Shown here in pieces: positions 15,713 to 64,000 of a stretch of DNA of 64,000 nucleotides (positions within the stretch are counted from its first letter, which is position 1; every line of letters begins with the position of its first letter). The stretch is taken from contig JBEWZL010000044.1 of assembly GCA_045837725.1 (NCBI GenBank), forward strand, positions 62,001 through 126,000. Reading direction: 5' to 3'. This DNA is from Vermamoeba vermiformis. Its lineage: Eukaryota. The position numbers and the translations under genes were made by a program. The notes beneath the pieces are model-generated. The model was not told the origin of the DNA, ran no database searches, and saw nothing but the letters and a program-made list of their open reading frames with translations.

Positions 15713-18143
15713 TCACCAAATAAACGGCGAGTTGTGACTAAATTTGGCATCGGACATCAACACATCGATCACGTGCCATAGTTTTCGCTTCTTAAGCTCT
15801 TTCAATAGTGATCTGCTCTTCAGCACAACTTCGGTCTTGTCCACCACGTTCATGAACAGCTTCACAATTTCATGATTGCCGCTCGCACAAGCTGCCAAAA
15901 ATGCGCTGAAAACTTTCTTCTTATTGTCTCTGACCTGCGGATAAGACAGCAATTGTTTCACGACTTGAATACCGTTCGGATCTGAGCCAGCAATTTTCAA
16001 CGCGTCACTGCGACAAGATGCTGGATCAATTCCAAGATGATCGACAAAGAGTTTGACAGATGACACGTGTCCAAATTGAGCTGCTGTCTCGAATGCCTTT
16101 GCCATAATTTTCGAGTCAGGGTTGAGGTGTTCAGTGAACCGTTTGTCACGTGCCAATAACAAAATCATCTCCTCGTTGTTGTTTTCTACGGCGATATTAA
16201 GTGGGTTGTCGATCGAATCATCGTACAGCGTCGGATGAGGAAATTTCAGGAGAAATTTCGCGATGTCGATGTTGTTCAGTTTGACGGCCATTCTCAGCGC
16301 GAAGTTATTTTGCTCGTTGATGTCGATCACGTGCTTCTTATTCGAGTTAAGAATTTCTTTGACAACTTGAGGTCTGTTGGCAATGACTGCGTAACTGAGA
16401 ATAGGAAACGTATCGATACCATCAATCATTCGAGATTTATCCCTGATTTGGACTTTGAGATCTATTTTGGGATGTTCTATTAATATCTTCACCATCTCTG
16501 AATTGTTGCAAAGTATCGCTTGTTTGAGCGCGTTGTTGTTGTTTGCTGAAGGTTTGATGATCGGAGAATTTCGGAGAATTAGTTTGACGAACTCGGTGTC
16601 GCCGCTCTCGATGAAATCTAGCAATAGATTATCGTGCCTAATGTTCACAGTGTCGAGCAATAGCTTTTTAAGTTCTTCGGGTTTGAGCCTTGGTCCCTGG
16701 GAGAAAGTATTAACCAACGAAAGTACATACTTTGAACGACTTAAACTTACGCCTAAATGCAACGGTCGACTCCCCATTTTGCCTATATAAAGTAAGTGTC
16801 GGTTAGATTATAGTTTTATTATTGCAATCATACTGAGCTTACTCTGAGTATAGTAAGTTTGGAGCAAAGTGAGCACTTTCAAGCGTCCTTGTTTCCGCAA
16901 ATCGCTGAAGAAATGCCTCGGTTCAATCTCGTTGGCGAGATTAATGTTCATTTGCGTGATTAATATACTAATTACTTGACAATCTTCTCGATCGGATCTG
17001 CAACAATCTGCAAAGATGTTCAAAATATCTCCGCGGAAGTACGTCACGTTGGGGTACTGGAACAGAAATTTCGCTAGCGCCGCGTGACCGTTCAAGCAAG
17101 CAATTCTGAGAATTTTGTTTTTTTCGTGCGCCGGCTCAATGTCGAATTTTTCAACCAGGGTCTTAATTATTCCGATGTGTCCTTCGTGGGCGGCTAACTC
17201 CGCGACTTCGTATACTGTCTCAATACTATACTTGAAGTGCCTAATAAGTTCTTTCAACATGTCCGTACTTCCAGACTTTGCAGCAATTCTGAGCAGTTTG
17301 ATCGATTCTTCGTCTTCCGCCAATGTTTCTATTTTTGGATTCACTGGTTTCTTGTACGTATAAGTACTTATTGCCATCTTACTGGCACTAGTAGTATATA
17401 AATCATCGTCTATTTTCTTCGTTACTAAGGGCATTGGAATTAAAATTTCCTCCGACTTGCTGCATCGGATCAAGGGTTGTTGAGTTGGCTTGTTAAGAAG
17501 GTACCGGACTAACTCGATGTTATTATTCTTTACTGCGTATCGTAGAGTCTTCTTATGAGTATCTTTAAGGTCTATTAAGTAGGTGTGTTCTTCTATCAAT
17601 AGCTTCGCAATGGCAGTTTGATTTTGTTTAGCCGCGTAGTCGATGATATTGTAGTTCTTAATGTTATTTCCATCCTCCACGTCCCATATAGGCAGTGTGC
17701 TATTATATTTGGGGTGTTCTATCAACAGTTGAAGAATTTCAATATTTCCGTTGCCGATCGCTTCGCGAATGATTTTGTTTCTCTTAGCTGATGGGTTGAC
17801 CGTCGTAGATTTGTTCAAAATATTCTCCACTACGGCTAAATTGTTATATTTGACGTATTTATAGAGAAGATCGTTGTGGTTGTAACGATGTGGATTTGAG
17901 ATCATCAGATCCAGGACGAGTTGGTGATAAGGTTTGTTCAGAAAGATGAACTTCGTGGCTACTAGCGGCAAAATAACGAGCTTTACAACCTCTGGAGGCA
18001 ACTCTGATATATTAAACGAGGGTAGCTAAACGGCAGATTAATAAATCACAAATGGAATTATTCCGCCAATTAATTACCTGCTTCGGATTGCGAGAAAGAA
18101 CCAAAGAACTACTTGCCCTATTTAATTCTACTTGTTTTTTCAT
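15713..18143 (-). CDS. Ankyrin-repeat protein with a putative N-terminal F-box; the two track ORFs are one gene
   Basis: Intron GTAAGC..CTAAC..TAG (about 16783-16842) joins the 397-aa and 354-aa ORFs in frame (..TQ-S-KMGSR). First exon MKKQVELNRASS.. splices to LPSFNISELPPEVVKLVIL (F-box-like). Many ankyrin repeats (e.g. AAHEGHIGIIKTL, ACLNGHAALAKFL). Confidence 0.8.
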
Positions 18144-43476: not shown

Positions 43477-46400
43477 ATGCAGATGCGCAGCGCTGCTTTT
43501 TTATTTATTTTAACATTCTTATTCTGCGCACTACAAGTCTCAGCAGAACCTGCTTGGGCGTGGATAGAAGGAGATATTACGGTACCTAATCTTCCTTCCC
43601 TCGTTGGCTCTTCTGTTGTACAAAGCGCAAACAAGAGAGATCTGTGGTTGTTTGGCGGATTAGGTACGAGCTTGCGCGAAAAAATATTTAAAATCTACAA
43701 TTAAGACAGAACATCTCGCAGAAAAAGTTATAAATAGTATGGCCATACTTTAAACGGTAATAAAATTATTCGCTATTTCTAACTTTTTTTGCGCTAAGGG
43801 CCAAACGAGCAGGATGGCAATAATTCCACCTTATTATGGAAGCTAGATGTGAAAAATAATTATACATGGGTGCCTATCACTACTGCAGGCGAAGATCCAA
43901 CTCTTCGAACTCAATCTCTTGTGTGGGTTGACACAAACGATAATTTTTTCGTTTATGGCGGTTATTTGCAAGGCAATCCTTACCAAATAGGCTCAGACTT
44001 ATGGATATATAATATAACAGCTAATGAATGGCGATTATTAAGAAAAGAATCAGCTGTGGTGCGAGGAGATCTTGGATTTGGAAACTCGACTACAACTCCT
44101 GGCCCTAGAGCGGCCTCTTGCACTTGGTTCGAAAATGACGAGTTGTGGTTATATGGAGGAGCAGTAGCATATGTTGACACGAGAAGATCAGCAGCGGATG
44201 TTTGGAAATACTCGATCACATCTGACACCTGGACTTGGACTTCAGGACAGATAGGAGAGAATGTACGGCCGTTGAACGAGGTTGACCTTCGTGTACCATC
44301 TAGTACGGCATTTCCAGGCTCATTTAACGAAGGTGGTTGTACTAAAGATATGAACGGAAACGTGTGGTAAGATCAGATCGAAATTTTATTTTTTTGGTTT
44401 TTTATTTATACAATAATTTACAATTATTAGGTTTTATGGATCAACACCCGACACAACCGTCGAATCAAATCAAATTTGGAAATTCAATCTGGCTAGTTTG
44501 AATTGGACTTTTGTGGATGGGACTTGTATTGTGCAAAATGGAAGTTGGGTGCAAGGACGATATGGCTGGCAAAGCACTATTGGCGAGTACAATGGGCTGA
44601 ATTTCCCGCCATATTCATTTTCAATCACGCTGGTCTATTCCGGCAACAACATGATCACGCTATTTACCAGACAGTCTGCAATATGGAGCTACAACATCAC
44701 TAGTAATCAATGGGCTACTATAATACCTTCGGGTATTAGAATATACGAAGATTACAACGTCACTGCAAGTCGTTCGGAATTTCAAGTGCGATCTGCATCC
44801 AACAACCCTGGCGCAAGACTTCAATATGGATATCCGCAAACATTAGGAAGCCTTTGGATTGTACGTGGAAACGCGACTGCTGACGGAGATCTCCCTGCAG
44901 ATACCTTCGTCTACTCAATTGATATTTGTGGCTCGGATCTGGCTCCGAGTTGTAGCCCAAACTCAGCGTGCGTCGATAAGATTGGCTACGCAGAGTGCCG
45001 ATGCGATGAAGGATATGAAAGTGATGGAGTCACGTGCCAGAAGATCGTAATTCCGTCACCTGAAGATTCTTTCTGGCCCGCCAATAATGAAGGGCTTGGC
45101 TCATCTCCCCTCGCGATATCTCGCAACGCGGAGCTCGTTAAAAAAGTCATCCCCGGCGTTCTCGTGCCTGTTGCAGTACTGGCGGTGGCTATTCCGTTTG
45201 CTGTTGTTTGCCTCAAGCGTCGCAAAAGTGCTGCCAAGAAGGATGAAAAGAGCTACGAAGACCGCAGCTCTAGTGGCACTACGGTTAGTTTGATTAATTC
45301 TCAATCTCAATAGACCACATGGACTAATGGATTTGATAGTACTTGAATATGAGCGGAGTTACTATGACCAACACGACTTCGGGATCTACCAACAATTTGG
45401 ACTTGCCCGTCTCGAATTTCACTCAAAGCCAAAGTAGCTCAGAGGCAGATAAGATGAATATACCTTACTCTGAATTGAAGATTCGTCACGAGATTGGTGC
45501 GGGAGCGTACGGCAAAGTGTTCATCGGTGAATGGCAAATGACAACAGTGGCCATGAAGATTAGTGGCTACACTTCATCACAAGAGTTCTTGCACGAGGCT
45601 GCCCTATTGACGTAAGTTTTGAATGGCAAAGTTGGGTGACGTCACAGCAATGGCTAACTCGTTTTTGAAGCAATCTTCAGCCACATCCAAACGTCGTTCA
45701 AATTATTGGTGTGTCAAAGTCAACCGACGGCGTAAACACAATTATGATTATGGAGTACTGTGACGGAGGTACGCTACTCGATATTCACATCAATCACGTG
45801 TTCGCTCAACATCATTTTTTTTTTGCCTATTTAGGAAGTCTCGACAAAGTACTGTCAAAGTCTAAGGTGCCATTCGCGGCAAAACTGCATTACTTGTCGG
45901 GCATTGCTAAGGGCGTGTATCACCTGCACAAAAACAATATTATTCATCGTGACTTGGCTGCTCGCAATATTTTATTGTCTCGGGGTGAGCCCAAGATATC
46001 AGTAAGTAATACATTTTCCTATATAATAATTTTGCGAATAAAAATTAATTTTTTTATTAGGACTTTGGTTTGTCTCGTAAAGTAGAAGATCCGACGAACT
46101 CTGGCAAGACTAAATCAACTGTGGGTCCCTTACGATGGATGGTACTATATTATCGCTATTATAGCTAAAAATTAGCGAGTTAATGATTTAAAATACACAG
46201 GCGCCCGAATCTATTGCAACGACTGAATATAGCGTTAAATCGGATGCTTGGAGCTTTGGAATACTTTGCTGGGAAGTTCTCGCTGAAGAAGAGCCGTATG
46301 ATAAGTCACAAGAGGATCAATTGGATCTCGCTATTGCAATTAGGTACGAAAAGACTTGGAATTCTTTTTAAGTATTAAAAATCTAAGTTTTAATATGAAT

Positions 46401-46850: not shown

Positions 46851-48407
46851 ATGGATAAGAAAATCATTCTAGTGTGCGCTTTACTCATTTTTACTTTGTC
46901 TTTCGTGTCCTGCTTGCATCAGCCGTTCACGAAAGGAAATCTGTTGGCGCTCAAGAAAAACGGTAAGATCTGCTGTATTTTTTAGTATAGCTTTGTACTT
47001 ATTCGTATTATAGTTACTCCTATTCGTGCAAATAGTCCTTGTGCTGCAGGAGGGTTCGTCGAATTTACGCCGGATGGTCAGATCGTGCAAGAGGTGCTTC
47101 TTCCGACCAACGCGACGTAAGCTATACCTTTCACTTATAGTGGTTATTATTCTTTTGCGTGAGCTCTGAGTAAAAAGATTTCTGGACTAAAAAGGCAATT
47201 TAATTTTTAACCTTTACTCCAACCTTAAAGTTTGTTTATGTTGATAAAATCTTTGTAGCAAGGTTTACGCCTATATTAATATACTATATTAACAACAACC
47301 CTTAGGAATGAGCATCAAGCTTGCCTGCTCTTCACTGGCGATTACAATAGTCGACATACTATTACTACGGATGGGCTACGTGTGATCATCCCTTGCTGCA
47401 ATGTGAATGAAGACCCTGCTATATCTGACTCATTGGTTAGCTTTGCAATTGTGCACGGCGATGGTCGCTTCGAAACTACTCCGATCTTGAACAATACAAT
47501 TAATCAAGTGCCCACTAACTCCGTTATGGATGGCGATGATATTTGGTATAGCTTTGGAGGGTCTAGCGGAGCTATATTTTACGCGCCAGCTAATTCCACC
47601 GTCACAACTCCGATCTTCACCGGACCGATCTTCGCGCTTCAGATCCACGAGGGAAATCTCTTCGCGTCCAACTTTGAAGGCTTTCCAGGCTCGCTTGTTC
47701 AAGTCGGGATTGGTCTGCCCAAAGAACTCACGACAGATAGAGTGGATTTATTGGAACACAACGACGTCAACAGCTTTTTGTTCCTTGGCGAGCACGTGGT
47801 TTTGAGTCTCTATCCTGACGGCTTGAAGATTTACAACGTGACGTCTGGAGAGCTGGTTCTTGGCTCTGGCGGCACTCGCGAGATAGTCCAATCTGTTCCA
47901 CTGTTTGAGCACAACACAGTCATCGCGCATGTCGCGGGGTTTGGTAGCCAAACGCCTGCAATCTACTCATTCCCTTGGAACGAAACTAACAACATTGGCA
48001 CATTCGACACGGCCACGATCTTGCTGAACACTACGGCCGATGGATTCTATTACTACAGTCCTACATTCGTGCCCATCAACAGCTGTGAGGACGGCAAGAA
48101 AAACAACGACGAGACTGACGTGGACTGTGGTGGTTCATTCTGCTCGCAGAGGTGTGACGGAGGCAAACAATGCTTGACTGACAACGACTGCGTGACAAGT
48201 GGTTGCACGAACAACGTTTGTGACCTGCCTCCAACACCTCCTGTTGCCGAGCCAATTGCTGCTGAACCAAATACTCCTATTACTGACGCACCGAGTGGCG
48301 CTTCGACTAGCCCGTCAAGCAGACCTCGGGCTAATTTAACTTCGTCGGCGAGTTTGTTCGCAGCCTCCTTGGCTTCAATCGCTTTGATTTCCTTAATGTT
48401 AGTTTAG
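46851..48407 (+). CDS. Secreted beta-rich protein, paralogue A, with a Cys-rich DETDVDCGG module and a GPI-type C-terminus
   Basis: Signal peptide, PFTKGNLLALK, VEFTPDGQIVQEV; CEDGKKNNDETDVDCGG; P/S/T stalk and hydrophobic tail. Confidence 0.8.
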
Positions 48408-49043: not shown

Positions 49044-50193
49044 ATGCTCCGACAAGTTATTCTTTGCACCTTACTTTGTGTGCTTCTTTCCGTGGAGGCA
49101 ACCCGTCCTAGAGCCTTCACCAGAGGAAACCTGCTGGCCCTCAAGCAACTGAGCAGTAAGCGTATTATTATACTTGATTATGAAGATGACTAACGTTTTT
49201 TAAGGTTCGAGCAGCATGTGCGCTGACGGAACTCTCGTGGAATTCACTCCTTCCGGCTCAGTCGTGCAAGAAATTGACCTTACTACAAGCGTTCCGTAAG
49301 TTTGATAGATATATTAAGCGATTTATATCATAATTAATCTTGATTTCAAAATGAATCAATATTTGGAAATTAACGGTCATGATTCAAAATCGACTTAAAG
49401 TCATTAATCGTTTGCTTTCAGTGGTGGTTGCAAGGTCTTTACCGACGATTACTATGGCCGCCTCACTTTGGCAACTGATGGCACTCGCGCTATTCTTCCT
49501 TGTTGCCACGTCGATCCGACAAACGCTACGCAATACATGGTTAGCTTCGCCATTATTAGCGCCAATGCTAACTTTGACCGAACCTGCGTCAAGCAAAATT
49601 CCGCTGGACTTGGTCAAGTTGTCAATGCCGCTTTGAAGGCAAACGACATCTGGTACTCGAAGGACTCCCAAGTGTGGTATACTTCAATTTACGCTCCTAC
49701 ATCGACTGCCATCTTCGCGCAAGACTTCTTCCAATTGCAGATCTACAACCGAAATCTCTACGTCGGAAACTACGATCATCTTCCGTTCACAATTGCTCAA
49801 GTCGGAAGTGGTTTGCCCAAGAGATTCGTCGCTGGAAGCGGAACGGCTTATCTTGATACCAACCCTACTCTATCCGTCAATGCCTTCGAGTTCCTTGATA
49901 AATACTTGGTCGTGAACATGTACCCGAGTGGCATCAACATCTACAACTTGACCTCTCAAGCACTCGTCTACTCAGTTGCTGACACCGAAGAGATCGGTCA
50001 ATTGGTTTCGTTGTTGGATCAAGGCAAGATCATTGCTCATGTTCATAGCATTGGCACCACTCCTGCTTCGATCTACTCCTTCCCGTTCAACTACGCTACT
50101 GGCATCGGATCTTTATCCGAAGCCACCGTTCTCTTGACCTCTGCTACTTCAAAGTACTACAGCCCTATTCGTGTTCCCCAAACTCGTTATTAA
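49044..50193 (+). CDS. Secreted beta-rich protein, paralogue B (no anchor)
   Basis: MLRQVILCTLLCVLLSVEA, FTRGNLLALK, VEFTPSGSVVQEI; stops just after YYSPIRVPQTRY. Confidence 0.8.
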
Positions 50194-50520: not shown

Positions 50521-51813
50521 ATGAACGGAACAACTATTGTTATTGCTCTACTTTGCGCTCTTCTTCTGTCGACAGCGCAGGCAGCCGTCTTTTCTCCCTT
50601 CACCAAAGGAAATCTTTTGGCGCTGAAACAGGCTGCCACTAGCAACACTACGTGCGTCGACGGATACTTGGTAGAATTTACCTCTACAGGACAGATCGTG
50701 CAAGAAGTGATGCTAACCACTGATTCTGCGTAAGTATGAATATTACTGTGTCAAAATTATTCAATCAACCCAATATTTACGAGGGTATTGTTAAGCGAAA
50801 ATTTTAAAGTGGTTAAGTAATGTTACAAAACAACACGCGACAACCAGTCCACTAATCGTCTTTGAAGTAATGATTGCCAATTGTTCACTGATGACTATTA
50901 TGGCCGTCTTACCTTGGCCACTGACGGTGCTCGTGTCATTCTGCCCTGTTGCCATCCGGATCCAGCCAACGAAACTCTATACTTGGTCAGCTTTGCTGTC
51001 ATCCACAGCGATGGCACTATGGAAAGAACAGACATTATTCAAAACTCCAGCGCTAGACAGGTCGTCAATGCGGCGTTAAACGGAAGCGACATCTGGTACT
51101 CGCAAGACGGACACGTGCTGCACACTACTACTGAGGTCAGAGCTACTGCATCCACTAAAATATTCGAGCAAGATTTCTTCCAATTGCAGATCTACCAAGG
51201 AAATCTCCTCATCGGAAACTACGATCATCTTCCGCACACCATCGTTCAGGTCGGAAATGGCTTGCCTAAGGAACTTATCAGTGGCAATGGAACTGCGTAT
51301 CTTGACACTGACCCTACTCTATCCGTCAATGCCTTCGAGTTTTTGGATAAATACTTGGTATTGAACATGTACCCGAGTGGCATCAACATCTACAACTTGA
51401 CCTCTCAAGCACTCGTCTACTCAGTTGCTGACACCAACGAGATCGGTCAGTTAGTCGCGTTATTGGACCAAGGCAAGATCATCGCTCATGTTCATAGCAT
51501 GGGCAACGTACCTGCTTCGATCTACTCTTTCCCCTTCAGCTTCGCTGACGGAATCGGAACCTTGTCCGCAGCAACAATTCTTTTGACTTCTAACGCCACA
51601 GAAGAGTTCAAGTACAAGTACTATAGTCCTATTCACGTGCCTCAAGGCAGTTACGTTCCTGTTGCAGCTCCTACGACTACAACTCCGACTTCTCAACCAA
51701 CGACATCCGTTCCTGCCGCAGCACCCACCGGCAAAACACCAATTAAGGCAAGCGGCAGTGATTCCGTAGTTCCCTATCTTTCGTTGTTAGTAGTTGTTGC
51801 TGCATTACTGTAA
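50521..51813 (+). CDS. Secreted beta-rich protein, paralogue C, GPI-type C-terminus
   Basis: Signal peptide, PFTKGNLLALK, VEFTSTGQIVQEV; T/P stalk and SGSDSVVPYLSLLVVVAALL. Confidence 0.8.
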
Positions 51814-52104: not shown

Positions 52105-55100
52105 ATGGAGGCAAGAAAAAATCTGTTTTTGATCTCGATTTTTCTCCTAGGCTTTTCTGCTGTTAGTTTAGGCTTGAAACCACCAGCATGGGTCGAAGGA
52201 GGATTAGAAGGATTCAATCCAAGCGGTCGCATGTACTATTCTGCGATCCAAAGCTCAAACAAACGCGATCTGTGGTTGTTTGGCGGTTTTGATGGTAACA
52301 ATAAGATAATTTCAAAAATTATATTTACAGACGGGATAATTACCGTGTATTTTTTTGAAGTGATATCCTCCAAAACTAATCCGTTAATGTAAAATTAAAT
52401 CAGGTATAACGTTGCAAGGATTGGGCGATCTGTGGAAGCTAGATGTGCGAAACAATTATACATGGGTTAATTATACTGTAGAAGGCGATAAGCCCGCGCC
52501 AAGAGGCGAAGCAGTCCTTTGGATCGATAGCAAAGAAAATCTTTATATTTACGGCGGGAATAGCAATAACACAATGGATGTGATTACGTATTCAGACCTA
52601 TGGATGTTTAATTCGACCTCATTGCAATGGCACTTACTCCGAAATGAATCAGATCTCGTTCGAGGAGACCTTGGAAATGGCACGGCAGCAACACATCCAG
52701 GACCACGCGTTGGTGCGGCTGGTTGGACTCAAAATGACAACGAATTATGGTTCTTTGGTGGCATTGGCGTCCCTAGTCTATTTATTTATGCCGATGTATG
52801 GAAGTACACAATCGACAGCAATGTTTGGACTTGGATGTCGGGCCAAAGCGATCCGAGTCCTGGCCCAACTGACGACGTTACGTATAACAACCCTTCGACT
52901 ACTGCTTTACCCGGTGGAGCATATGGCGCCGGCGTTACTAAAGATACGGATGGAAACGTGTGGTAATTTATCCGATCTGATACACAATTTCAGATTTTGT
53001 GATTTGGCTCACTAAAAACCGGCCATAATTAACGAATATTATTAGGTTTATGGGAGGCCGAAACTTTGAGACTTCAAATCAACTCTGGAAATTTGATCCA
53101 AAAACTCTCGAATGGACGCTATTGAACGGAACACTGCGATTAAACAACGGAACGGTGGTTAACGAAGTATTTCAGAGTTATTATGCAGTTGGAGTCTATT
53201 CTCCTTCAGCGTACCCGCCGAATCCGTTCAAGTGCCCGTTGATCTACTCCGGCAATGGTTTGTTAACTCTAGTGCTTGGCGAAGGCTACAACGCACAAAC
53301 ACAAACGTCACAATTTCTAATGAATTTATGGAGCTACAACATCAGTTCTGGTCTTTGGGCGTTCATGTACGGACAACAAGGCCGCCAGTACGCGAAATTT
53401 CAACAATCGGATCTTGCAAATAGTCCCGGAGTACGAACCGGATTTGGAATGATCGGCACTGGCAGTGCATGGGTCATTAGAGGATTTTATTTGCCGGAAG
53501 CACCGACGGATACATTTGTTTATTCAGTCGATGTTTGCGGCACAGATCTCGCACCGGTGTGCACCATCAACGCCACGTGCATCGATAAGATTGGATATGC
53601 AGAGTGTCAGTGTAAAGAAGGATACGAAGGTGATGGAGTCACGTGTCAAGAAGTGATTGTGACAGCTCCACCGGTCTCCGAACCTGCCGTTGTACAAGCA
53701 CCACTTGCGGAGAATATAACGCCAACACAAGATCCAAACTTGGTCAATATAATAGTGCCCTCTGTTGTGATACCCGTTGTCGTTATAACAGTAGGTGTGA
53801 TAGTGTTAGTCGTGCTTCTCAAACGACGCAAACGAGCGTCAAAGAAGCGGTCAAAACTCGATGACGATAACAATGACAGCACTCTCGTAAGTTTATTTTT
53901 TTATGATTTGTTATAAAAAAAATAACAACGTACTAACTGACTTTAATAAGTACACGTCAATCGTTGGTCACGAGTTAAATGTCAAAACTGAATCGAATGT
54001 CACATCACACACTGCAACTATAACGACGAATCCAACGAGTGACTTGCACTCAAGCGAAGCTAAATCGTCAAATGATATCGATCGGATGAACATTCCGTTC
54101 AGTGAATTGAAATTTCGTCACGAGATTGGCGCGGGAGCGTACGGCAAAGTGTTCATCGGTGAATGGCAAATGACGACAGTGGCCATGAAAATCAGTAGCT
54201 TCTCTTCATCACAAGAGTTCTTGCGCGAGGCTGCTCTGTTAGTGTAAGTTATACCGTCAATTTAAACGAAAACTCATTCGTTCGTTCATAGAAATCTCCG
54301 ACCACATCCAAATGTCGTTCAAATACTTGGTGTGTCAAAGTCGATTGACGATGTGAATGTTGTAATGATCATGGAGTACTGTGACGGAGGTACGCTCGAG
54401 ATTAGTTTAGTTCAAGCAATACTAACGATCGGCTATTTCCTTTTTAGGAAGTCTCGACAAAGTGCTATCAACATCTAAAGTGCCATTTGCAACGAAAGTT
54501 CAGTACTTGTCTGGTGTTGCGAAGGGCCTCTTCCACTTGCATAAAAACAAAATTGTTCATCGGGACATTGCTGCTCGTAACGTTTTGGTAAGCACGATAA
54601 TTATAATGCTGTAAAGCCATTTAACAATAACTAATGACTTTAATATTTGTAGTTGTCGCGTGGAGAAGCCAAGATTTCCGTAAGTCACGACAAATGACAC
54701 GTGTCATTTTTTGCATTAGGTATTAACCAAAAGATAATTTAGGACTTTGGAATGTCACGAAAGATCGACAACCAAAGCGCACAAGGTACTTCAAAGTCAA
54801 CGGTTGGTCCAATTCCTTGGATGGTATGTGATCTGGCCACGAGGAGTGATTTGATACTAACGGCAAAATTTAAGGCACCCGAATCGATCAAGTCAATGGA
54901 GTACAGCAGAAAATCAGACGTGTGGAGCTTTGGTGTCTTATGCTGGGAAGTTCTGGCTGAAGAAGAGCCGCACAAGGGCTTAGATCTGCTTGAGACTGGC
55001 ATTGCAATTCGGTACGTACGCTGATTGATCAAGTTTAGTTTCTTTTTGCTAACTTCTTTTAGTGACTTTGGCAAAACACCAATAATTGACACTAATTGGC

Positions 55101-60107: not shown

Positions 60108-61375
60108 ATGTCTATCAAGAAGTTTATTTGCTTACTTGCTATCTTCGGCCTCCTCGCCGTTTCCTTGGCTTCAACTCCCGGATCTGACGCTCCATCTGCT
60201 AACGCTCCTCAATCCGACTCTCCTCAAGCTGAAACTCCGAACGCCGATAGTTCTACTCCGGCGGTCGATTCTCCTGCCTCCAACTCCAACTCCACTGAAG
60301 TTGAAAGAAGATTCGAATTCTCCTTTGGTTCCGACCAGATTGAAGCCCGTATTCGCATTCGTCAAGGTGACTCCGAGAGTGAAGTCCGTCACGAATTGAG
60401 AGCTGAATCCTCTGGCGCTGAATTCAGAGTCGAATTCGAACAAAAAGCTGGCGACACCGAAAACCAACTCCGCATGCGCTTGCGTTTGTTCGAGTTGATC
60501 GAGTACGTCCCTGACCAAACCCCTGGCTATCAAAACGAGACAGTAAGTATTGAATTGACGTAACAATTTCATATTTACATTTGTGTTCACGAGATTTTTT
60601 TTGGGATCTCAATTAATTAACTTTGCCACGCAGATCGTTAACACTTACAACTCTTGGGACTGGGGCAATGGCTTCGCTGACGAGACTCCTGCTGGATCTA
60701 ATGACTCTAGAGTCTTTACTTTGAAGACTGCTGACAACATTTTTGCCATCACCATCCGCATCAACCGCCCTGTTGAAGGAAACCTCACTGTAAGTATTTA
60801 AGCTTTAATACTATGTAGAGCCAAGGATTAATATTTCCGGTCGCTAGGTTAACCCTGAAGACGTAAAGTTTGACCTTCATTTGGACGCTGATGCGATGCG
60901 TGCCGCTGGTTGGTTGAACGGTACTGAAGTCGCTTTGAATGCTGCCTTGGCCTCAAGACTCGAGACTGAGCAAGGCCAAGAAGGCTCTAGCGACGAGCAC
61001 TCCATTGCTTTGGGCACATCTGGCGCTGCTGAGTTCGGTGCTTTGTTCGTGTCTTGGATCAACTACATTCAGTGCGGTGACACTAAGGTCTCCGTTGTTC
61101 CTTCTGCCTTGCGCGTGGACAACAACCAAACTGATGCGAGCGACGACGCTGGCAGCACCGCCCACGTCGTTTCTTTTGCCTTCGTGGATTTGAGTGCTCC
61201 ATCCAACACTCAATGCATCTGGGACCCTACTCTTTCTGCCACCCGTGCTAGTGCTGTTGCTGCTCCTACTACCGGCACCAATCCCTCCACTGGCGTTCCT
61301 ACTGCCAGAACCAGCGGTGCTACATCCGTCGTTGCTTCGATGGCTGTTTTGGCCACAGCAGTTGCTTTGTTCTAA
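60108..61375 (+). CDS. Secreted, probably GPI-anchored protein of unknown function
   Basis: Signal peptide, S/P/A-rich linker, beta-rich core ending CIWDPTL, T/P stalk, SGATSVVASMAVLATAVALF; 3 exons; strong codon bias. Confidence 0.8.
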
Positions 61376-61605
61376 ACCGTGCATTGTATTTTCTCAAATG
61401 TCAAGCGTACTGCTTGAAATAAATATGGTTAGAGAAAAATTAGGCAACGAAGGAATTTTTTTAATTTTTTCATACGCTTTATTATATATTACAGGCTAAA
61501 TAAATAAAAATGAAGTGTATTTGATGGGTTTAGAAAATATAGTGATAGACTAGTATTCTATAAAAAAAATTCTAAACTGAAAAAAAGATCTCGATCAGAA
61601 TCGCT

Positions 61606-63794
61606 TTAGAGCGTCTTCTTTCGATATTCTTCTTCGGACACGAGCTTAGCAACACGAAGACCGGCTAACTCGTTTCTAGCAGCTTGAGAGTGATTGTAGA
61701 CTGTCTCATTGAAGGCTTGAGTCGCGTCTTTGCCAATGTACGCTTTGATCAACGCACGGCCACCCGGGTGTTCGTTAATGAAATCCGTCACGTCGTGAAC
61801 GAGGTTATCGATCGTGATCAAATGAGCTCCTTCAGCGCATCGGGACTTGAACTGTTGCAAAGACATATCGGGCAATTCGTCGATAGATTTGCCCCAGGAG
61901 AACTTTGACTTCTGTTCGTCAATTCTCTTTTGCTTCATTTGGATGACTCCCTTTTCGAACAAATCGGGCTTGAATCGCTTCAAGTTGTAGGCAATGCCGA
62001 AGTAGCCCAGCAACGAGATCAACCACTTGCCTAATGTATTGTACGTTAGTACCACACGTGTCAATAGTTAGAGCGTTGCACAACTTACCAGGGTCGTAGT
62101 GCATCCATCTCAAGCCATTTCTGTAGTCATAAGGGAACTCGTGATGGAAGTTGTGATAGCCTTCACCGAATGTGAACAACGAGACAATGTAGCTGTCACG
62201 AGGAGTGCGTTGATCGCTGTACGTGAAATCGCCCCACCAGTGAGCCAAACTGTTGATGAAGAAAGTAGCGTGTTGAATGAAAACAGCCTTAGCAAAGCCA
62301 CCAATGAAGAGACCGCCGAGCCAGTCACCCCAGCCGAGGCCAGCAATTAAAGTAGGCAAAACAATGCCCAATCCGAGAGCGAAGTAAGGGTAGTACTTGT
62401 GTTGGAAGGCTATAAGTTACATCGTTAGAAAAAGTTTTGATATCTTGGGTAATGTAAGAAGCTAGGACTTACTCAAAATAGGATCGGCTAACAAGTCGCT
62501 AATGTCGACCTCAGCTTCAGTGTAGTACTCAGGACCCCACGATTCACGCTTCCAAATCAACCAGCCCATGTGCGAGTACCAGAATCCACGCTTAGCGTTG
62601 TACGGGTCCTTGTTTGTGTCGGTGTAACGGTGGTGAGCACGGTGATCGCGGCACCACGAGATAACGGAGCCTTCAAAAGTTGAGGCACCAGCCAACATCA
62701 AGGGAATCTTGGCGATGCTCTTGACGTCGTAGGAACGATGAGACCACAAGCGGTGATAGCCCGAAGTAATACCAATGCCACCAATGTAGTACAAGATGAA
62801 GCCGAGCAACAAAGTCTTGGCGTGAACTTCACACACGAAGAAACCGATGAAGGCCAAGAAGATAGAGCCGAACAACCAAGCAGTGACGAACCAATCAACC
62901 TTCTCTGCGAGGGACTTGACACTAAGGCCAGTGTCGTCATTGGAGAAAATGAACTTGGTCAATGAAGTTTCTTGGAGTTGCTACGTTTGTGCGTTAGATC
63001 CGGCCATTAAAAAACTTGAATTGCGCAACTTACCTTATCAAACTTCTCTTGCAAGTGCTTGTATGCTTTCTTAATGTTGTAGTTGGGTACGGCGATGCTG
63101 TCGACAATCATGTAGTTGAAGTTGTCGGACAAGAGCTCGACCCACTTGGGAAACTTGACGGCAAAAGTGACGGAGATTTCGTTCTTGAGCTGTTCTTTGG
63201 TCTTTTGCACGGTCTCTTTGTACTCCTCGTAACGCTCAGAGGCCAACTTGAGCAAGGCAACGTGAGGTAACTGATGGGCCTTTTGGAACGAGCTGGCCCA
63301 GAAGTGATAGACCAACCACGGCATTAAGTAGTACTTGACGAGACTAAGTAATGTGTTAGTAATTGACATTATAAAATGAAGCTTAGAATCATCAAAAACC
63401 GGATCTTGATCTCCATCCGTAAGGAAAAAACTTACCCCCACCAGCCCAAGTTTAGAGCCATCAATGGGAAGAAGATGCAAACAAACGCGTAAATAAGGAT
63501 CATATTCACCATTGCTCGCTTCTCTAAGTTAATGTACGGAGTGACTTGCGCCTTGATCCATTGCCAAGGCGAAGCCACGAACCAGAAAGGAGACGATAAA
63601 AGTCCTATAAATATGCTTATTAGTAATGTACTCGACAAGTACTAAGTGAAGTACATACTTGAATTGTTATAATATTTCTGCCAGGATTGGAAAGGAGTCA
63701 TTAAAGGCAGCATGCACAACGTGCCAATAACGTCGTTTAAGCGCTTATTTTCAACAAAAGCGCCTTTACTGCACGCGTAAGAAACTGTGAGCAG
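61606..63794 (-). CDS. Delta-9 acyl-CoA desaturase (OLE1-type) with C-terminal cytochrome b5 and an N-terminal degenerate FAD6/DesA-like domain; 5' end probably outside the window
   Basis: His boxes HRLWSH, HRAHH and HNFHH; b5 motif HPGG; in-phase upstream exons (..EKFDK/QLQETSLTKF..). Confidence 0.92.
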
Positions 63795-64000
63795 CTATAT
63801 AATAAGGTTAGAGATTGCTAATTATTGTAATTAGATTGCGCATCCATTAATAGTCCGAATCCAAAAACTTTAAATTATTTGTAAGCCAGCAAATTCGAAT
63901 TTGCATTTGCATACGCTAAAATTGAGGTAATCGAAGATGCAATAATTCATCTGCGATTGATTTTCCGTTCATGAAAACAAGAAAAAACTTTGAAGATCCG

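Follow-up and report, generated by a model that had tools for sequence, protein, structure and literature searches.

A gene on the minus strand of Vermamoeba vermiformis contig JBEWZL010000044.1 (assembly GCA_045837725.1) encodes a membrane protein that joins three modules in one chain: a FAD6-type desaturase domain (the N-domain), a Delta-9 desaturase and a cytochrome b5. It lies at the edge of the analyzed stretch, positions 62,001 to 126,000 of the contig, which is 64,000 nucleotides long and is called the window here. The three modules are encoded by one expressed gene, and it is almost certain that the product is a real tripartite protein whose FAD6-type domain lacks the ligand histidines. 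The N-domain is a full-length relative, with a complete fold, of the cyanobacterial and plastid omega-6 (Delta-12, FAD6/DesA-type) desaturases, and the predicted product is an eight-helix membrane protein of the endoplasmic reticulum type. The favored reading, with a probability of roughly 0.6, is that an omega-6 desaturase shell was fused to the Delta-9 module, died stepwise and is now a non-catalytic membrane partner of that module.

One expressed gene for three modules

The minus-strand frames were searched for GT donors and AG acceptors and for CTAAC/CTAAT motifs resembling branch sites. Six in-window exons, from 63794 to 61606, splice in frame to give 622 codons (Table 1). All five in-window introns have GT..AG ends and one of the branch-site-like motifs, and the frame is kept throughout. 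The first-pass annotation, made from the sequence of the window alone, had placed the feature at 61606..63794, which is right for the part of the gene inside the window and too short for the full gene, whose two 5′ coding exons (about 18 and 48 codons) lie past base 64000. The peptides it quoted do lie on the minus strand where it put them. The one ending in WQKYYNN is in exon 63794-63659, a 23-letter peptide crosses the junction of exons 63604-63436 and 63343-63034, and VKFPKWVELLSDNFNYMIVDSIAVPNYNIKKAY is in exon 63343-63034.

Public sequencing runs provide the evidence for splicing. Twenty-four runs are listed, 19 of which hold part of the stretch, and four, from four studies, were examined; the runs are not on record as RNA, and the evidence used is the presence of assembled contigs in spliced form. 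The joints 62029/30|62088/9, 62409|62473 and 62980|63034 are present in contigs of all four runs, 63603/4|63658/9 in those of three and 63343|63436 in those of two. What the contigs skip coincides exactly with the predicted introns, all five of which have CT..AC ends when read on the plus strand and hence GT..AG ends on that of the gene. The depth in the intron bin 63354-63435 is zero in all four runs. One 1605-nt contig (run X2, record 18) covers N-domain exon 63034-63309 together with every Delta-9 and cytochrome b5 exon and reaches 61564, while another (record 20) joins the three N-domain exons. The related protein P0001 (594 residues, 97% identical over the query exon) is uninterrupted in a 1877-nt contig and crosses each predicted junction with the predicted residues. 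The proposal of a single tripartite protein is therefore upheld, since spliced contigs in four runs, together with P0001, join domains that might have proved to belong to separate transcripts.

The 5′ end of the gene can be traced beyond the window. Contigs in all four runs leave the window sequence at 63794, and their loose end, read on the minus strand, gives WMFLGTAITG, the same residues that precede this junction in the full-length relative P0002. L004, a genomic contig from a close relative with 83-90% DNA identity to the window exons, has an 18-codon ATG exon (MNSF...LLPKE), a 109-nt intron and a 48-codon exon (VFQTS...WMFLGTAITG) that encodes two hydrophobic helices, followed by a 453-nt intron and then LLTVSYACS. 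Because only 206 bases remain upstream of 63794, the two missing exons, which correspond to transmembrane helices 1 and 2 of the N-domain, must be outside the window, and a length of about 688 residues is expected for the complete protein of this lineage. A 12-codon first exon at 63950-63915 was considered and is ruled out by the divergence of the contigs of all four runs at 63794 and by the upstream exons of L004.

A separate observation concerns the segment 63109-63312, inside exon 63343-63034, where other contigs in three of the four runs match only the flanks of a variable insert. These contigs have a joint 63159..63261 with an undetermined sequence in between, and they end loosely at 63109 and 63312. 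The loose ends read LFKYYFIPLA on the gene strand, resembling P0004 and P0010, and the depth reaches 499 (run X2). It seems that a further related gene, with another insert, is represented more strongly than the window gene; it would be either a paralogue or a gene from a relative that co-occurs.

The second and third modules are of well-characterized types. The Delta-9 boxes HRLWSH, HRAHH and HNFHH are intact in the translation, as is NSLAH (N...H, helix 4), and the corresponding residues are the metal ligands of SCD1. The Delta-9 domain of P0001 scores 67.2 bits with Pfam FA_desaturase, and P0002 matches the human and mouse SCD1 structures with an E-value of 1e-59 (9.8e-60 for 4zyo_A). The cytochrome b5 domain passes Pfam PF00173 and has both the HPGG motif and the second heme motif, NHS. 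The contrast drawn in the first-pass annotation, between intact Delta-9 boxes and replaced N-domain boxes, is borne out in the translation and in the box alignment described below.

Table 1. Parts of the tripartite desaturase gene within the window, listed from the 5′ end of the gene
Feature	Position	Strand	Basis or remark
3′ portion of long intron	63795..64000	-	depth 0 in 63846-64000; contigs diverge from the window at 63794
N-domain exon with remnants of His box 1 (SYACSK for HDCGH) and box 2 (WQKYYNN for W..H..HH)	63659..63794	-	weak Pfam FA_desaturase match
N-domain exon, amphipathic segment and hydrophobic helices preceding PWLVYHFW	63436..63604	-	translation
N-domain exon, PWLVYHFW, charged helical insert (lineage-specific), FPKWVE, box 3 remnant (LSDNFNYMIVD replacing CHDINVHIPHH), VPNYN	63034..63343	-	translation, alignment
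Linker of about 25 residues, Delta-9 transmembrane helices 1-2, HRLWSH, HRAHH	62473..62980	-	Pfam FA_desaturase E 5.4e-6
Delta-9 transmembrane helices 3-4, NSLAH, box 3 HNFHH	62089..62409	-	Pfam FA_desaturase E 1.8e-8, 34.9 bits, exceeds cut-off
End of Delta-9 module, hinge, cytochrome b5 (HPGG ... NHS), stop codon of the 622-codon frame at 61606-61608	61606..62030	-	Pfam Cyt-b5 E 5.2e-17, 62.1 bits
3′ untranslated region	61550..61605	-	spliced contigs extend to 61550-61564

Homology and fold of the N-domain

The standard family models barely recognize the N-domain. Exon 63659..63794 matches Pfam PF00487 (FA_desaturase) with an E-value of 0.0075 and 16.5 bits, below the gathering cut-off of 29.7; the isolated N-domain of P0002 has no Pfam match, and NCBIfam gives the histidine-less N-domain only a 20.5-bit local match to a bacterial DesA model. 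An atlas label, 'FA_desaturase-like' with a score of 0.90, is a lead and not evidence. The canonical desaturase P0012, which has all eight histidines, finds two N-domain exons in the window by tblastn (E 6.9e-12 and 3.5e-5), in the right order and on the right strand. With phmmer, the 103-residue exon has 19 matches at E <= 1e-3 among 1.84 billion representative proteins; ten of the 12 matches scanned with Pfam carry FA_desaturase, and the matches include the canonical stand-alone three-box proteins P0012 and P0016. As judged from these alignments, the resemblance of the N-domain to canonical desaturases is far beyond chance.

The similarity extends over the whole domain. When a profile of seven histidine-less N-domains is aligned by hhalign with one of seven canonical FAD6/DesA-type proteins, the probability is 100% and the E-value 6.2e-55 over 265 columns (residues 7-285 of 291), so that the refuting condition named in the first-pass annotation, an absence of profile similarity to FA_desaturase, does not hold. 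A profile of 11 N-domains has a single match among all Protein Data Bank (PDB) sequences, 8xks chain K (E 1.6e-22, positions 24-302 of 306), which is named there 'fatty acid desaturase domain-containing protein / FADL'. The AlphaFold model of the P0002 N-domain, based on a 22-row alignment, has a predicted local distance difference test score (pLDDT) of 84.6 and a predicted template modeling score (pTM) of 0.83. The only Foldseek matches of this model below E 0.001 are 8xks_K (E 1.6e-9, TM 0.73) and 8xqw_M (E 2.0e-8). Among the 48,161 chains compared by VIA-align, 8xks_K gives a Z-score of 25.2 (rmsd 3.3 Å, 262 residues aligned) and the membrane di-iron alkane hydroxylase AlkB (8sbb_A) one of 10.4, while SCD1 (4ymk_A) gives 5.9, a value common among helical proteins. 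The modeled N-domain, as seen by AlphaFold, VIA-align and Foldseek, is a four-helix membrane fold with a cytosolic cap.

The prokaryotic relatives point to the same family. A scan of one genome per species with the single pattern PW.[VGL][YF]HFW.[SN], which favors the FAD6/DesA type, yields 574 confirmed relatives. The best 80 of these are homologous to the N-domain over its full length, with 29-34% identity, mostly over residues 12-284 of the P0002 N-domain, and come from Cyanobacteriota (70), Sericytochromatia (1) and unnamed bacteria (9). The proposed assignment to the plastid/cyanobacterial Delta-12 group thus agrees with the hhalign result, with the match of the AlphaFold model to 8xks_K and with the cyanobacterial identity of all the best named prokaryotic relatives. 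The one sequence of the best 80 that is labeled Candidatus Sericytochromatia, a non-photosynthetic sister group of the cyanobacteria, is L136, which adjoins a Coleofasciculus sequence in the tree (97/95).

Relatives, loss of histidines and genomic surroundings

A small family whose members have the same module order is recovered when the exon, the P0002 N-domain and an N-domain profile are used as queries and one metagenome scan is added. The suggestion that such proteins in other organisms are unrecognized rather than unique is confirmed by these relatives and by the Pfam scores of the histidine-less form, which remain below threshold. The source names of the tripartite proteins are merely 'stearoyl-CoA desaturase'. 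Subgroup B, which has no histidine boxes, includes the window protein, P0001, P0002, P0022 (a complete 693-residue transcriptome protein), P0006, P0021, P0014 and P0004. Subgroup A (P0011, P0023, P0024, P0025, P0026 and P0017) has intact boxes 1 and 2, while its box 3 reads Q..HY (6/8 histidines); P0011, P0023, P0024, P0025 and P0026 are tripartite proteins of 699-800 residues, and P0025 and P0026 carry a linker insert of about 60-80 residues. A third type is found in L003, where positions 50-2359 of the plus strand form an uninterrupted tripartite frame of 769 residues. Of the histidine boxes, its N-domain retains only HDCVH (box 1) and the leading histidine of box 2, and HIL stands in place of HFW. 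The Pfam FA_desaturase scores of the N-domains follow these types: 21.0 bits for P0022, below the cut-off, and 85.6 bits for subgroup A and 51.6 bits for L003, both above it.

The eight ligand columns of the three boxes were defined on P0012 and read in an alignment of 24 N-domains, in which rows that are fragments span only some of the eight. Histidine stands at 8/8 in the canonical P0012 and P0016, at 6/8 in P0011, P0023, P0024 and P0025 of subgroup A, at 3/8 in L003, and at 0/8 in the window protein, P0002 and P0022. The fragments of subgroup B have 0/6 (P0001 and P0014), 0/3 (P0004), 1/3 (P0006) and, in P0021, where only box 3 is covered, two of three. In the window protein Y-A-C-S-K takes the place of H-D-C-G-H in box 1, KYYNN occupies the region of box 2, and N-Y-M-I-V-D is found at box 3. 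The earlier claim that all three His boxes are replaced is consistent with the count of 0/8, with one correction, that the second position of box 1 is K and not S. Only four histidines are left among the 205 N-domain residues in the window, one of them the invariant H of HFW. The motifs ending in.WVE, and IP.YN, are invariant or nearly so in 22 sequences. Since all eight ligand histidines are lost, the N-domain cannot carry a canonical di-iron site, and it very probably has no desaturase activity. The N-domains of subgroup A might, in contrast, be active omega-6 desaturases that share the fused cytochrome b5 with the Delta-9 module.

Despite the loss of its ligands, the N-domain is strongly conserved. 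Between the window and L004 the three N-domain exons (205 codons) have 64.7 synonymous and 15.3 non-synonymous differences, corresponding to a dS of 0.92, a dN of 0.032 and an omega of 0.035. Between the window and L001 the Delta-9 and cytochrome b5 part (339 codons) has a dS of 0.97, a dN of 0.042 and an omega of 0.043. The window N-domain is 48-50% identical to that of P0002, and the Delta-9 part is 61% identical. Since selection on the N-domain is as strict as that on the catalytic part, the N-domain does something.

The trees define the subgroups better than the connection between them. In an N-domain tree of 22 rows, from which P0001 (a near-copy) and the short fragments P0003, P0005, P0010 and P0019 were left out, subgroups B and A form clades with support of 99/99 and 100/100, and the FADL-like proteins P0018 and P0020 fall among the canonical plastid-type proteins (99/99). 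A larger N-domain tree, to which 16 hand-picked loci of the 80 cyanobacterial ones were added and from which P0007, P0017 and P0020 were also omitted, again places P0018 with the plastid-type proteins in a 100/97 clade. The third tree, for the Delta-9 and cytochrome b5 part, contains 11 fused rows, 12 of 13 non-fused loci that bear cytochrome b5, and an outgroup of eight hand-picked from 59 open reading frames without cytochrome b5. Here subgroups B (90/87) and A (98/99) are also clades, and constraining all fused rows together costs 2.5 log-likelihood units, which is not rejected by the approximately unbiased test (p-AU 0.31). A single ancient fusion followed by ligand loss would be compatible with these data and is weakly favored.

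Of 291 Delta-9-related metagenome loci 80 were kept, and tblastn at E 1e-4 finds the N-domain only in L003 and L004, although introns or distance could conceal further N-domains among the 80. One metagenome locus, L044, has a stop-to-stop frame of 685 codons in which the Delta-9 box 1 appears only at position 343 and which has no cytochrome b5. Its long upstream part does not match the N-domain; this part may be read-through of non-coding sequence or an N-terminal extension of unrelated origin.

Several other frames are present in the window. At 60848-61375 on the plus strand lies an Ala/Ser/Thr-rich frame that ends in a hydrophobic tail. It converges on the desaturase gene, from whose stop it is 230 bases away; it has no Pfam family and looks like a secreted or lipid-anchored surface protein. 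Two adjoining long frames at 15713-18025 on the minus strand are full of ankyrin repeats (Ank_2, E 7.5e-25 and 9.2e-19) and are probably one gene or a tandem pair. The plus-strand frames 44417-45313 and 53029-53916, each of about 295 residues with EGF_3 at residues 178-207, and the second with weak Kelch matches, are likely to be paralogues 8.6 kb apart. The long frames 47280-48407, 49408-50193 and 50866-51813, between and around this pair, have no Pfam family.

Possible role of the N-domain and its significance

The known systems closest to the N-domain suggest what a FAD6-type shell can do when it is no longer an enzyme. The best match in both sequence and fold is the FAD6a or 'FADL' subunit of the Chlamydomonas Orf2971(Ycf2)-FtsHi chloroplast import motor (8xks chain K, 8xqw chain M), for which the structural report (bioRxiv 10.1101/2024.09.02.610899) describes partly conserved histidine boxes, no iron density and a fatty-acid-like density inside the protein. 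Like the N-domain it has a FAD6-type fold with degenerate boxes, but it is a stand-alone protein of the plastid inner envelope with 682 residues and keeps parts of boxes 1 and 2. Because P0018 groups with the plastid-type proteins, while the fused domains form clades of their own, the N-domain is not the orthologue of the algal subunit, and the algal loss of ligands is a separate event. Cyanobacterial DesA and plastid FAD6 have PW..YHFW, P.W.E and IP.YN in common with the N-domain. They are, however, stand-alone enzymes with eight histidines, which receive their electrons from ferredoxin, whereas the N-domain has none of the eight and precedes a cytochrome b5-dependent enzyme.

The rest of the protein resembles yeast Ole1 and Aspergillus SdeA, which have the same order of Delta-9 module and C-terminal cytochrome b5 and the same motifs. 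Unlike the window protein, neither has a second desaturase-like membrane domain, and no N-domain was found in the 13 non-fused Delta-9 loci with cytochrome b5 from the metagenomes. Yeast Ole1 reportedly forms a dimer, and plant FAD2 and FAD3 are said to form heterodimers with channeling. Such complexes provide a rationale for pairing desaturase-fold domains, but they are non-covalent and both partners are active. According to the SdeA study (bioRxiv 10.64898/2026.10.23.760519), the fungal enzyme needs its cytochrome b5 in cis and works only as a self-associated complex. The thraustochytrid 'non-canonical Delta-9 desaturase' (PMC8390409) is a Delta-12-like enzyme with Delta-9 activity and not a fusion.

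A partnership of this kind could be accommodated by the topology of the chain. A FAD6-type domain has four membrane helices and both of its ends are cytosolic; the helices in the AlphaFold model of the P0002 N-domain are consistent with this arrangement. Because both ends are cytosolic, the linker can lead directly from the C-terminus of the N-domain into the Delta-9 module, whose N-terminus is cytosolic, with cytochrome b5 also in the cytosol. Since the first module cannot hold a di-iron centre, the chemistry of the protein would be Delta-9 desaturation with electrons from its own cytochrome b5. The family would have started with an active omega-6 desaturase fused to a Delta-9-cytochrome b5 enzyme, one cytochrome b5 serving two successive desaturations. 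The omega-6 site would then have been lost stepwise in several lineages, of which the subgroups with 6/8, 3/8 and 0/8 histidines may be the record. The surviving shell would be the covalently attached half of a 'heterodimer' that stabilizes or positions the Delta-9-cytochrome b5 unit, and it may hold an acyl chain or a lipid in the old substrate tunnel.

A role of the N-domain as partner, scaffold or lipid binder in the service of the Delta-9 module, taken by itself, is about evenly balanced between being right and wrong. It is suggested indirectly by the strict conservation together with the constant order of the fusion, by the reported Ole1 dimers and FAD2-FAD3 heterodimers, and by two precedents, the iron-free algal subunit that holds a fatty acid and the fungal enzyme that associates with itself. 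A more specific version, tentative and rather doubtful, makes the dead half a regulatory lipid-binding partner on the dimer face of the Delta-9 module, whose activity or stability it would tune according to the acyl chains in its old substrate tunnel; the 6/8 subgroup may still make linoleate from stearate on one polypeptide chain. Several points weigh against the favored reading as a whole. The AlphaFold model of full-length P0022 is moderate (pLDDT 71.6, pTM 0.52) and comes without inter-domain confidence. The two omega values were obtained with two different relatives, L004 and L001, from one pair each. The single origin of the fusion is weakly supported: in the best tree from the larger N-domain set a branch separates the 13 fused rows from all others with values of 56/72. 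The trees do not settle whether subgroups A and B are sisters, so parallel fusions could replace stepwise decay, and the third box of subgroup A, with its Q..HY, is not canonical.

The main competitor, itself rather doubtful, is that the dead domain has an independent function apart from the Delta-9 module, for example in storing or transporting lipids, in targeting to a membrane or retention there, or in docking to another complex, and was fused only for co-expression. The closest solved relative, the algal subunit, does serve a protein-import motor and not lipid desaturation, and the presence of the N-domain in only 2/80 Delta-9-related metagenome loci means that Delta-9-cytochrome b5 enzymes generally do without it. 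The algal subunit is not an orthologue, however, as the FADL-like P0018 groups with plastid-type enzymes apart from the fused forms, the linker has only about 25 residues, and the fusion is kept in every relative covering both parts. It is highly improbable that the N-domain is only a decaying, functionless remnant of a once bifunctional enzyme, even though all its metal ligands are gone, its cap region has an insert of variable length and Pfam fails to recognize it. Its fold is confidently predicted by AlphaFold, its frame is open, its motifs are kept between members that are only 40-53% identical, and its omega of 0.035 at a dS of 0.92 is as low as that of the catalytic part; on the codon comparison, a neutral relic is excluded by this value.

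Still more improbable is an N-domain that remains an oxidative enzyme with metal bound by other residues. The histidine of HFW is invariant and stray box 3 histidines occur in P0006 (1/3) and P0021 (2/3), but four histidines among 205 in-window residues are few, and the aligned sites hold Y, K, Y, M and gaps instead, without an acidic cluster that could compensate. An annotation artefact, in which two neighboring genes, or a pseudogene beside a Delta-9 gene, are read through by chance, has a practically negligible probability. The one point in its favor, before the transcript data, was that the gene extends past the window end. Each of the four runs, which come from four studies, now has spliced contigs that connect the domains, unless these contigs are mis-assembled, and P0001, P0022 and L003 are uninterrupted, with the same domain order, in intron-free contigs.

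A literature search that covered few subscription journals, most of them lying outside it, found no description of a desaturase-like domain fused before a Delta-9-cytochrome b5 enzyme and no FAD6-type pseudoenzyme beyond the algal motor. As far as can be told, the architecture and the graded histidine series are undescribed, while the modules are of known kinds and one earlier case of a dead FAD6-like protein is known. The family also carries a warning for annotation, as its tripartite proteins are filed as 'stearoyl-CoA desaturase' and the dead domain escapes Pfam.

Membrane desaturases are thought to work as dimers or heterodimers, and natural covalent pairs have not previously been available for study. 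A series that has 6, 3 and 0 of the eight ligands beside an intact Delta-9 module could reveal a role of the desaturase fold beyond catalysis, and could show how pseudoenzymes arise among membrane di-iron proteins. It could also tell whether one fused cytochrome b5 serves two desaturation steps. If the dead half does tune the Delta-9 module according to the acyl chains it holds, it would be a built-in sensor of membrane unsaturation.

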